The notes under the pieces are model-generated. The model was given only the letters and a program-made list of their open reading frames with translations, was not told the DNA's origin and did no database searches. A program made the position numbers and the translations under genes. From Escherichia phage vB_Eco_SLUR25, in the sequence record LT907986.1: a stretch of DNA of 58,998 bases; one strand, written 5' to 3'. Shown here one piece after another: positions 19,452 through 24,343 of this stretch (the stretch's first letter is position 1; each line of letters opens with the position of its first letter).

Positions 19452-20279
19452 ACCTACCTCCTAACAGCACTATACACAATCCATAGTAGGTCAGCCACAA
19501 TTATTCCACCTGAAGTTATAATGTGAGCGGATTGTTAATATATAACCACATGTGATGGAAAGTTTTGGGTAGGAATAGTTGGTGCTCCACAGTTTGCACA
19601 ATGTGACGGAAAGTTTTGTGAGTTTTGCAAAGTTTTGCGAAGTTTTGTGGTGCCACTGTTGCTAAAAACTTTAATAAAAACAATAAGTTGGTGCAGTAAG
19701 TTTTTGCGTTTTGGGGTAAAACGCATTTTTTACCCTAATACCCTAATCCCGACTGTTAGTAAAAAACGTATATAAATCAATAGGATAGATACTAAATGAA
19801 TAGTGAATGGAATGGGTAGAAATCCAAATGATGGAAGTGGAATAAATTATTCCTACTTGATGGAATAATGGAATCGGTACTCTGGAGCGCAAAAACCTAA
19901 AACTTTCAGTCAACAGACTAAAAACGGATAGAAACTAAAAGTTAATAAGTAATAGCATAAATATATATAAAATAAGGATTTATTAGTAATGTATATAGTA
20001 CCTATTGGTATTATTTGAATGTTTTTGGGTCTGCAACAAAAAGTCGCAAAACTCACAAAAAGTGAAAGATAACAATTCGTGACAAGATTGTTAATGGAAT
20101 AGGGTGTATGGATATACAGTATTATTCCAGATTCCGGAATAATTGGAATAATGGAATAAATTATTGAACTATTGTGATCGGAATGTATATCAAGCTATAA
20201 TGCGCTTAATCGCGGGATATTGGAGGAGGACTTTATTGCGCGGTTAACCGGACCAGTAGGAGGGCTGGCCCGGAGTAGT
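19452..20279. promoter_or_regulatory. 830-bp non-coding control region: phased GTTTTG repeats, TGGAATA palindromes, AT-rich core, 15-bp long-range inverted repeat (origin/early promoter region candidate)
   Basis: GTTTTG at 19561, 19612, 19621, 19631, 19642 (about 10-bp phasing); palindromes GGAATAAATTATTCC (19838..19852) and ATTCCGGAAT (20130..20139); TTTTGTGAGTTTTGC (19613..19627) inverted at 20045..20059; AT-rich 19925..20000. Confidence 0.5.
19705..19730 (+). terminator. terminator-like hairpin plus T-tract on plus strand inside control region
   Basis: GCGTTTT-GGGGT-AAAACGC followed by ATTTTTT. Confidence 0.4.
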
Positions 20280-20480
20280 TTAGAGCTGTACAGGTATGAA
20301 GTGGGCTAATGTGTCGTCGGACATGATACCCGACAATTTTTCGCTTACCCATTCGGACCAAATGCTATCCGGTTCCTGGCGGTGTACAAACCAGATTTCG
20401 GATGTGCCTTCTTTGCGCATCGGCTGCACTTCTACAAGAAACTTGTCCTGCATGAGGCGGGTGAAGCATACGCTGGTCAT
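20280..20480 (-). CDS. hypothetical protein
   Basis: 66 aa ORF; weak RBS. Confidence 0.35.
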   Translation of the reverse strand: MTSVCFTRLMQDKFLVEVQPMRKEGTSEIWFVHRQEPDSIWSEWVSEKLSGIMSDDTLAHFIPVQL

Positions 20481-20654
20481 TGGAACTGGCTTTTCGTGTT
20501 TATTGTAATAAGGAGTCAGTAATTTATTTCCGAAGTTAGCAACTTCATAAACAGTTCCTTTGCGAAGACCTCTGATGTCTGTGTAAGAGCGATAAATGTT
20601 TTCATGTTTACTCCTAGGGCTCCCGCAGAAGCCGTTGGTTGATGTGGTTATAGA

Positions 20655-21828: not shown

Positions 21829-22228
21829 AACGCGCCTCCAAGTATGGTTAAGAAGTAGTACCGTGTTGCTATGGGTACATAATAGCGATGCATTGTGATA
21901 TTGAATAGGCCAAAAGTGCTATTTTAGAATCGTTTTGCATCTAGTGAAAATTATGCTTGCCCTACATGTTTAGCACCAATGCCCTAACTAATATCACACG
22001 ATCCGGTCTACGCGCTTGCACACATACATCTAAGGAGCGCCGGACCAGTTCCCACGGACTGGGAGTAGTACACCGGATCTACCAGGGGGATCCGGTTCCG
22101 CGTATGTGCAGAATCTACCAGGTAGGATCGGTACTATGTGGGCGCCGGAAATACCAGGGGCGCTCAACCGTCTCCGGTCGTCCTGTAAGCTGGTCCAAAA
22201 TATTTTTATAAAAAGATGCAAAAAGGTG

Positions 22229-22257
22229 TAGACATATGATCAATCTAACCATACTAT
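22229..22257 (+). promoter_or_regulatory. candidate sigma70-type promoter for the rightward arm
   Basis: TAGACA - 17 nt - TACTAT located about 50 nt upstream of first plus-strand gene. Confidence 0.3.
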
Positions 22258-22306
22258 ATACACATACCGCAACGGTACTACAAATTAACTTAAAGGGGTC
22301 TACATC

Positions 22307-23055: not shown

Positions 23056-23196
23056 ATGTCACGCAAATACACGCTTACACGCGCACAGCACGCGTTATTA
23101 ATTGCAGCAATGCGCGCAGAATATGTAGTTCATGGCTGGCACAGTGCCATGATGCGCGGTAAAAGCATATATGCGGGCATACGCTCGCAAGGATAA
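23056..23196 (+). CDS. small hypothetical protein (46 aa)
   Basis: Manual translation MSRKYTLTRAQHALLIAAMRAEYVVHGWHSAMMRGKSIYAGIRSQG; ATG 2 nt after upstream stop with GAGGTG RBS. Confidence 0.3.
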   Translation: MSRKYTLTRAQHALLIAAMRAEYVVHGWHSAMMRGKSIYAGIRSQG

Positions 23197-23762
23197 CGCA
23201 CACAGCAGCACCACAGCGAGCTAAAGCTCAAAGGTAATGGTAATGCATTACCAACACACAACGAGCACGCTGTACCCCACAAAGCGGCGCTAATTTCAAC
23301 ACTCACAGGCTGTACGTTAACTCGTACGGCCTGCTCTGCTATATGCACGCGATGTATATAGCCAGCTCACGATATACATTAATATAATAACGAATGAAAT
23401 AGATTCGTCTGGAAGAATAACAGATCTTGCAGTCACAGACCGGTCCAATGAGCCGACTCATAGACCCCACCTAGGATCATCAGGGTACTAATAATCACCC
23501 GAGGGCGCCTTATCCATCCTGATAGTAAGTCCTTGCCTAAATCTCACCTGTCGCATCCCTATCCACCTACATCCATGACCCCACCTACCTTCTTTTTGAA
23601 TATATTGCGCTCATCCTTTCTAAATATATGGATTTTGGTAGTAAATTCTGAGTCGTCAACGTATAATTCGTCTTGTAGCTGCTCCATAGCTACCATCTTT
23701 AAGCGGATGCAACCAATTTCTATCAATTCACACCTGTTTTTAGAGCATCAAGGAGGTATTAT

Positions 23763-24011
23763 GTGCGACTCCAGTGCAAGCGCTGCACCAGCACCTCCAG
23801 CAATGTGGTTACAGAGGTAAATGCAATGCGATTAGGCCCATATCGCGGGTATTATGGTCGGGCAGCATGGAATGACGCTACTCAACGTTTTGAAGGCTGG
23901 ATTATCTGTCCAGAACGTGTTAAATTTCATTCCGTAAAAGAGAAAAATATCGTTCTTAATTTTCAAAAATGTGTCACTAAATATGTAGAGGAGCAAGAAG
24001 AATGCGTGTAG
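23763..24011 (+). CDS. hypothetical Cys-containing protein (start GTG 23763 or ATG 23826)
   Basis: AAGGAGG RBS ends about 7 nt before 23763; CKRC and CPER motifs. Confidence 0.4.
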   Translation: MRLQCKRCTSTSSNVVTEVNAMRLGPYRGYYGRAAWNDATQRFEGWIICPERVKFHSVKEKNIVLNFQKCVTKYVEEQEECV

Positions 24012-24292
24012 AAGAGATTGTTGAAGGTAAAGAGTATCGTTTACTGACCGATATTGGTGGTGTCGGATATACTCCGGATGATGCAGCTTGTTTTAATGTC
24101 CTTCCGCAAGGTGCTATCGTGACAGTTAACAAGGTTGTTACCGATTTATACAGCGTTCATGACGGCAGATGGCCACATGCAGTTATTGTTACCTTCGGTA
24201 AAGATGGTTATGTGGACCTTGATGGCGGAGACGACACTTACGAAGTCGCTTATACAGGTCTGGTGAGTCCCAATTTCCTGGAAGAAGTATAA
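24002..24292 (+). CDS. hypothetical protein
   Basis: 96 aa; RBS GAGGAG. Confidence 0.5.
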   Translation: MRVEEIVEGKEYRLLTDIGGVGYTPDDAACFNVLPQGAIVTVNKVVTDLYSVHDGRWPHAVIVTFGKDGYVDLDGGDDTYEVAYTGLVSPNFLEEV

Positions 24293-24343
24293 TTATCAAT
24301 CTATAATGGGCTCTACGGAGCCCTTAATTATCTGGAGATTGTT

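Follow-up and report, generated by a model that had tools for sequence, protein, structure and literature searches.

A conserved, modular non-coding gap between the early gene cluster and the rightward gene array of Seuratvirus phages as a candidate transcription-control region

Results

The Locus and Its Gene Neighborhood

The window, that is, the whole stretch of 58,998 nucleotides analyzed here, has its equivalent in the record LR025196.1 of phage SLUR63 (Seuratvirus, Queuovirinae), a complete genome that is rotated with respect to it (window position = record position − 18502). Replication genes read leftward and small genes read rightward from a divergence at 21829–22306; four small plus-strand genes, which form the rightward early cluster, precede a gap that begins after the stop codon of the last of them (table 1). 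This gap (23197–23762) measures 566 bp up to the GTG start codon at 23763, or 564 bp up to the ATG at 23761, and the GenBank record annotates no CDS across it. On its 3′ side, the plus-strand array runs from small genes through a lysis cassette to, in this record, the terminase and structural genes. Some 900 bp separate the gap from the divergent promoter region, and it is the sole large untranslated stretch of the rightward arm; it is not the largest of the genome, since the one at 19452–20654 spans 1.2 kb. Close to the gap, the plus strand has a single site resembling a canonical intrinsic terminator; it lies at 24308–24333, past a gene ending at 24292, and consists of GGGCTCTACGGAGCCC followed by TTAATTATCT.

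The original prediction described a gap devoid of any ORF equipped with an RBS and skewed toward C and A, and both traits were borne out. SD-like motifs (weak AAGG/AGGA) precede ORFs of 9–21 codons only, and the base content of the gap is A 29.5, C 26.9, G 17.3, and T 26.3%, vs. A 27.6, C 22.2, G 22.6, and T 27.7% for the whole genome, with A reaching 36% and C 32% over 23197–23300, and C reaching 37% and G falling to 10% over 23507–23600. The coupling of the neighboring genes at 0–30 nt did not hold up, the measured spacing being wider (−10 to +76 nt).

Table 1. Features of the gap and of its flanks, in window coordinates except for the last four rows, which are given in the coordinates of the respective loci.
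Feature	Position	Strand	Description
Last gene of the early cluster	23056–23196	+	46 aa; stop codon TAA at 23194–23196
Module A	23194–23252	+	Stop codon, CGCACACAGC, CACAGC units, two hairpins
CACAGC units of module A	23201–23206, 23212–23217	+	
Small hairpin of module A	23218–23229	+	GAGC-UAAA-GCUC
Hairpin A	23233–23252	+	GGUAAUG-GUAAUG-CAUUACC; −9.2 kcal/mol; includes the palindrome at 23239–23252
Module B	23251–23506	+	Indel-polymorphic; chain of hairpins as plus-strand RNA
Hairpin T	23306–23333	+	CAGGCUGUACG-UUAACU-CGUACGGCCUG; 11-bp GC-rich stem; −19.8 kcal/mol with flanks
Candidate promoter P_B	23359–23388	+	TAGCCA-N18-TATAAT; 10/12 matches; PWM 9.85, top 0.07% of genome positions
11-mer GACCCCACCTA, exact copies	23463–23473, 23577–23587	+	Second copy inside block III
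Module C	23507–23762	+	Conserved non-coding core; nearly invariant among E. coli Seuratviruses
rut-like tract	23513–23592	+	C 41%, G 9% (C/G about 4.7); unstructured, untranslated
Module C block TCCATCCTGATAGTA	23513–23527	+	
Module C block AAATCTCACC	23539–23548	+	
Module C block CCCCACCTACC	23579–23589	+	
Module C block TTTGAATAT	23595–23603	+	
Module C block GGATTTTGGTAGTAAATTCTGA	23630–23651	+	
Module C block CATCTTTAAGCGGATG	23694–23709	+	
Minus-strand promoter-like site	23632–23659	−	TTGACG-N16-CAAAAT; 9/12 matches; PWM 10.4, top 0.045%
Candidate promoter P_C	23639–23667	+	TAGTAA-N17-TATAAT; 9/12 matches; weak −35 (3/6), consensus −10; top 0.17%
RBS and starts of the downstream gene	23750–23763	+	AAGGAGG (AGGAGG at 23751–23756); ATG 23761, GTG 23763; gene ends at 24011
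HNH gene in locus L010	1992–2465		
HNH gene in locus L011	1964–2437		
HNH gene in locus L018	1508–1981		
HNH gene in locus L019	1508–1981		

Relatives of the Gap and Its Non-coding Status

The comparison set comprised about 35 related loci; a protein-anchored search of IMG/VR and metagenomes contributed 18 loci, of which only L043 and L049 are clearly diverged. The Salmonella phage STP-SP5 is about 70% identical to the gap across about 375 nt, and about 78% identical in the downstream coding sequence. For GottfriedDienst (Bas21), the identity in the gap region is 98%. When IMG/VR and GTDB were scanned with exact and gapped patterns, the only real matches were the three known Seuratvirus contigs; approximately 170 other matches came from the gapped pattern, which was overly permissive, and nhmmer found them to be unrelated. 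The gap had no blastn match in E. coli genomes or in plasmids. A search of the literature found no transcript or functional data for the gap region or for any Seuratvirus.

When a conserved protein-coding gene was looked for at the gap by comparison with related genomes, none was found. Single-nucleotide indels between close relatives disrupt all candidate frames, and STP-SP5 preserves none of the gap's ORFs. The variable sites of 23507–23760 are spread over the three codon phases as 23:14:21 (15 distinct sequences), vs. 1:1:12 in the adjacent downstream gene. A Pfam scan of all gap ORFs gave sub-threshold noise only, and a translated search (tblastn) of the gap with the HNH protein described below and with the proteins of the relatives' alternative cassettes gave no similarity. 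At the RNA level, searches against Rfam, with the whole window at the gathering threshold and with the gap at E ≤ 10, yielded only a 12-bit noise match, and a tRNA/tmRNA scan yielded no matches.

With no conserved ORF on either strand, frame-breaking indels, no codon periodicity or third-position bias, and no translated similarity, the decayed gene that had been envisaged is rejected, and it is extremely unlikely that a decayed or unusual protein-coding gene lies here in any form, be it the minus-strand ORF of 55 aa at 23559–23726 or the plus-strand ORF of 95 aa at 23533–23820. It is true that annotators of related phages did call ORFs in this interval, on the plus strand in Seurat (gp70), CAjan (AJT60560), and KurtStettler (bas22_0078), on the minus strand in Greed (ANY29776), ECP2304 (WVH02280), and SHIN8 (CDS0087–0089), with further calls in GottfriedDienst (bas21_0079/0080) and Dru_SM1 (_88/_89). 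However, these hypothetical proteins disagree between phages in strand, frame, and ends, they have no credible RBS and no similarity to candidate parent genes, and the frame of the 55-aa minus-strand ORF is broken by a 1-nt deletion in CAjan. Most likely, a stop-poor, C-rich sequence was mistaken for genes, and annotators may take the small hypothetical proteins of this interval, present in at least eight Seuratvirus records, as almost certainly spurious.

A Junction Module with a Maintained Hairpin

The gene located 5′ of the gap is a swappable cassette: unrelated small genes occupy its place in different phages, and all are joined to the junction TAACGCACACAGC. The 46-aa protein of SLUR63 resembles, by eye, a 46-aa ORF of the metagenomic locus L049 (1510–1650). 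Module A, which follows, is conserved even where both flanks differ, and its retention despite different upstream cassettes marks it as a recombination junction.

The perfect 14-bp palindrome GGTAATGCATTACC, to which attention had been drawn as a feature of its own, does exist and is unique, but it was overread, since the genome holds 3 perfect palindromes of 14 bp when 3.6 are expected by chance. It is part of hairpin A rather than a stand-alone site, and corresponds to a 7-bp stem, GGUAAUG/CAUUACC, that overlaps a conserved GUAAUG repeat. In the widespread, evidently ancestral allele, hairpin A is formed by GAGCUAAUGYA...UGCAUUAGCUC, with an 11-bp stem, and in STP-SP5 by GAGCUAGCCC...GGGCUAGCUC, whose UAAGUAAUGUAAU loop is similar; SLUR63 has acquired a different right arm by replacement and, with it, the new 7-bp stem. 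Across the alignment of hairpin A, 97.5% of the cells pair and two pairs are changed on both sides, STP-SP5 showing compensatory changes in the inner stem. The hairpin is followed by CA-rich sequence, with no U tract, and was not called by a terminator scan.

An Indel-Polymorphic Chain of Hairpins

Module B is found in only about a third of the relatives (12 fetched loci, some of them redundant). The group of Seurat, CAjan, and Greed has instead a segment of 118 bp, rich in GCACAGC repeats (2–3 copies at 9–12-nt spacing), a form shared with STP-SP5, L049, and the Hafnia phage yong3. Taken together, modules A and B are strongly structured on the plus strand (z = −4.54, with none of 100 shuffles as stable; z = −2.84 on the minus strand).

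The main element of module B, hairpin T, is annotated as a rho-independent terminator in SA126VB. Directly after it comes CUCUGCUAUAU, which has no proper U tract, so hairpin T is not a canonical intrinsic terminator, and the terminator scan did not call it; a GC-rich hairpin followed by a U tract is thus found neither here nor at hairpin A. In L043, the stem of hairpin T is kept through a double change from G-C to A-U and a change from G.U to A-U. The G.U pairs and compensatory changes of hairpins A and T fit the plus sense only. Another hairpin, at 23338–23362, is broken in GottfriedDienst and SHIN8 and is thus not maintained. The 11-mer shared by modules B and C (table 1) has related CCCGACCCAYC blocks at the equivalent place in diverged relatives, and a 14-mer, CTTTYTRAATATAT, is present twice, 24 nt apart.

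With regard to the regulatory RNA that had been suggested for the gap, our observations thus support maintained plus-sense hairpins in its 5′ half and, in module C, give no support, as detailed below.

A C-rich Core with Invariant Blocks

Over 23591–23716, nucleotide diversity (pi) is 0.01–0.03, equal to or below that of the adjacent coding gene. In STP-SP5, L049, L043, and yong3, module C appears as invariant blocks separated by spacers that vary in length and sequence. No module C-like sequence was found outside Seuratvirus in the phage, plasmid, and E. coli collections or in the IMG/VR and GTDB scans. When sought elsewhere in the genome, the module C blocks, the palindrome, and the junction motif each proved unique, so they do not represent a repeated phage promoter motif.

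As plus-strand RNA, module C is unstructured (z = −0.41), and RNAalifold detected no conserved structure on either strand (about −6 kcal/mol, 0–2 compensatory pairs). With neither a covariance-model match nor a covarying structure in module C, the local hairpins A and T are the only supported RNA structures of the gap. The rut-like tract of module C has the sequence-level properties expected of a rut site, namely, a C-rich and G-poor RNA of about 70–80 nt with little structure and no translation. It is the top 80-nt window for C over G on the entire plus strand of the genome (z = 4.0), and it is kept in all Seuratviruses examined, including those with an endonuclease insertion.

Several readings of short motifs in the gap were considered and dropped: DnaA, IHF, and CRP boxes seen by eye, for lack of support; a 7-codon leader peptide at 23628, for want of a start codon in STP-SP5 or yong3; and base pairing between block III and the SD sequence, as the latter differs among relatives.

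A Homing-Endonuclease Polymorphism Replaces the AT-Rich Core

In Skure, Dru_SM1, phiG7, and WildeMaa, a gene for a 157-aa HNH homing endonuclease replaces 23572–23825, thereby removing the AT-rich core, P_C, and 21 codons from the start of the next gene. The same replacement probably occurred in SA80RD, as judged from its divergent copy of the downstream gene alone. These phages keep everything from module A through the C-rich blocks, and the cassette brings, at the aligned position, a strong promoter of its own (TTGAAA-N17-TGcTAAAAT, with an extended −10; PWM 13.7). The core is therefore dispensable provided that a promoter is supplied, which favors a promoter role for it and argues against an essential origin or RNA gene at this place. 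The downstream protein of the HNH phages shows 80–84% amino-acid identity, vs. 98–100% for most endonuclease-free phages (91.5% for KS_W4), a divergence that is typical of the flanks of homing endonucleases.

No Pfam match was obtained for the downstream protein itself (23763–24011; VOG10342). A CCC run present in all relatives (around 23788–23789) is one C shorter in SLUR63, and the frame of the conserved ATG at 23761 consequently ends after 19 codons, so that only the GTG at 23763 or the ATG at 23826 of the deposited annotation gives access to the conserved body. The missing C reflects either a sequencing error or a true truncation of the N-terminus; the N-terminal extension is likewise absent from the relatives that carry the endonuclease. 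In CSP1C, two genes overlap at the corresponding position, with the labels “antitoxin HicB” and “RNA-binding protein Hfq”, one of which would be that of the downstream gene. Distant homologs are found in Craquatrovirus phages of Providencia, beside a gene for an HD hydrolase.

Such mosaicism raises the question of whether the gap is a mere scar of recombination and insertion, whose conservation would reflect recent sweeps rather than function. The sharp breakpoints at 23250/23251, about 23506, and 23572, the occurrence of at least three alternative contents, the variable cassette upstream, and the presence or absence of the endonuclease with its divergent flanks would all agree with this. However, the relatives from Salmonella, Hafnia, and metagenomes, whose spacers have freely diverged, keep the blocks at about 70% identity, the hairpins are kept by compensatory changes, and the G-poor composition is preserved even in variable spacers, and we consequently see the scar as a quite unlikely explanation.

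The same polymorphism bears on the possibility that the gap acts as a DNA-level site, such as a replication origin or another protein-binding array. In this regard, the CACAGC and CCCSACCYAYC repeats could be taken for iterons and 23590–23660 for an AT-rich unwinding region, the unique and conserved blocks are set among variable spacers, the array of GCACAGC repeats belongs to the ancestral allele of all diverged relatives, the 14-mer is duplicated, and replication genes lie a few kilobases to the left. Yet, the compositional asymmetry of the strands and the plus-sense G.U pairs point to a function at the RNA level, the SLUR63-type allele has another segment instead of the GCACAGC array, at least four phages have the HNH gene in place of the AT-rich core, which has not been relocated elsewhere, and a much better origin candidate exists at 19452–20654. 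We therefore consider a DNA-level role improbable. The stretch at 19452–20654 is ORF-poor, lies just upstream of the primase/helicase operon, and has a GC content down to about 31%; it carries AAAGTTTTG(C) units in both orientations (in tandem at 19610–19647, inverted at 19895–19912 and 20036–20061) as well as TGGAATAAT(GGAAT) repeats, and is a plausible replication origin.

Promoter-like Sites

The gap contains two perfect plus-strand copies of TATAAT (23383–23388 and 23662–23667). The second, which had been described as lying just upstream of the RBS, is in fact about 83 nt upstream of it rather than adjacent. The first belongs to P_B, annotated as a promoter in SA126VB, with an invariant −10 and a variable −35 among the five module-B phages compared. 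The second belongs to P_C, whose predicted start near 23674 would give a leader of about 85 nt to the ATG at 23761. P_C lies where the region is most conserved, within 42 nt that have a pi of 0.0095, and its −35 is flanked or overlapped by the half-sites GGATTT (23630–23635) and AAATTC (23643–23648). The PWM scores of the gap, in the top 0.05–0.17% of genome positions, occur in roughly the number that chance predicts for 566 bp, so these scores by themselves prove little. The support for P_C is comparative: the position of a TAGnAA-N17-TATAMT element is kept in four of the five phages or loci compared (SLUR63, L043, STP-SP5 with TAGAAA-N17-TATACT, and L049; it is absent from yong3), which, like the promoter found at the same place in the HNH allele, is consistent with promoter activity. 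The suggestion that promoters reside in the gap is thus plausible, despite the chance-level scores; no feature marks them as belonging to the “middle/late” class that had been put forward. The poor −35 and the invariant surroundings suggest that P_C is probably regulated.

A third site, on the minus strand, overlaps P_C and has the best PWM score of the gap, above that of P_C. Together with the strong structure of modules A and B, it gives some substance to the view that the gap encodes a trans-acting or antisense non-coding RNA, either a leftward G-rich transcript or a plus-strand RNA started at P_B: a leftward transcript from this site, with several GGAUG motifs, would be the complement of the C-rich tract, and the site falls in the most conserved 42 nt. 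It is kept, along with SLUR63, in L043 and yong3 (three of five), but is weak or degraded in STP-SP5 and L049, and the entire promoter region is deleted in the homing-endonuclease phages. Moreover, the gap matches no Rfam family, module C shows neither conserved structure nor compensatory pairs in support of an RNA on either strand, and the number of GGA motifs is, by an informal estimate, about what the G-rich composition predicts. A non-coding RNA thus strikes us as unlikely. A reading of the minus-strand GGAUG motifs as a CsrA sponge was dropped on the same count.

Discussion

The gap between the early cluster and the rightward array is non-coding, conserved, strand-asymmetric, and modular or mosaic in its make-up, with hairpins maintained in the plus sense. 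We give about an even chance to the explanation that it is a cis-acting transcription-control region set between the four-gene early cluster and the long rightward array. In its most likely form, as far as sequence comparison can tell, the gap would be the boundary of a transcription unit, combining a rut-like zone of Rho-dependent termination with a promoter. Here, termination, Rho dependence, and promoter activity are what we infer from the layout described above. A long unstructured RNA that is rich in C and poor in G is the textbook loading site of Rho. On this basis, RNA polymerase would leave the last early gene and the transcript would go untranslated past 23196, folding hairpin A and, in the SLUR63-type allele, the GC-rich hairpin T. 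The unstructured tract at 23513–23592 would then be exposed, host Rho could load on it, and termination would occur in the AT-rich stretch directly downstream (23590–23660). P_C, from within the gap, would drive the downstream genes, and P_B may contribute to their expression in the SLUR63-type allele.

Two aspects of the conservation go further than this proposal. A rut site does not need invariant blocks of 10–17 nt, and the conservation of blocks I–III is thus unexplained by Rho loading alone, so that a specific factor binding RNA or DNA may recognize them; and the near-invariance of about 125 bp exceeds the needs of a simple promoter. A bolder possibility would be that the universally retained part is a sequence-specific RNA switch, namely a nut- or put-like antitermination or processing site composed of the stop codon, the CGCACACAGC/CACAGC repeats, the hairpin with a GUAAUG-type loop and a covarying stem, and the C-rich tracts with the invariant blocks I–III. 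We deem this very unlikely; if true, the switch, recognized by a Seuratvirus or host factor, would govern the read-through from the early genes into the rightward array, which would represent a processive antitermination unrelated in sequence to lambda N/nut, in a subfamily of virulent siphoviruses.

Under the transcription-control explanation, the gap would be a conserved control point for the transition from early to later genes in a group that includes the BASEL phages Bas21–25. Seuratviruses are used in studies of host range and defense. If the gap does combine Rho-dependent termination with a promoter, it would offer a simple handle on temporal control in Queuovirinae. The place is also a natural, tolerated insertion site, as the HNH cassette and the alternative modules illustrate, and could be used to engineer Seuratvirus phages.

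Several known systems resemble the gap in part. In the cro–nutR–tR1–cII interval of phage lambda, the Rho-dependent terminator tR1 has rutA and rutB sequences flanking the boxB hairpin. Like the gap, this interval starts immediately past the stop codon with which a short early gene ends, gives a CA/C-rich untranslated RNA around a hairpin, with an unstructured tract of more C than G followed by an AT-rich zone, and divides the immediate-early from the later genes of the same strand. Unlike it, the gap has no boxA-like CGCUCUUA, the conserved upstream sequence being CGCACACAGC, its hairpin has a semi-conserved loop of the GUAAUG type rather than a boxB, and no N-like protein was identified here (a Pfam scan of two neighboring small proteins gave no match); it is also much longer, at 566 bp, and holds internal promoter-like sites. 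With the boxA consensus absent and no N-like factor known, the gap is not a member of the lambda nut system.

A second likeness is with the PeSL-type mobile regulatory cassettes of T4-like phages, which consist of an early promoter and a stem-loop and flank ORFan cassettes. In both, a short conserved hairpin module sits at a junction where small early genes are swapped; unlike module A, which is single-copy and comes after the variable gene, PeSLs are many per genome, include a promoter, and come before it. The presence or absence of the 157-aa HNH gene with its own promoter among relatives recalls the insertion sites of free-standing HNH homing endonucleases, except that SLUR63 carries the endonuclease-free allele and its gap has no endonuclease remnant. 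As for activator-dependent promoters such as lambda pRE and the T4 middle promoters, P_C shares with them a perfect TATAAT next to a −35 with three of six matches, in a conserved sequence where GGATTT/AAATTC half-sites straddle the −35, but it is a predicted site, with no known activator and no motif that recurs elsewhere in the genome. Overall, the gap would belong to a known kind of element, the intergenic transcription-control region, of which it would be a lineage-specific case.
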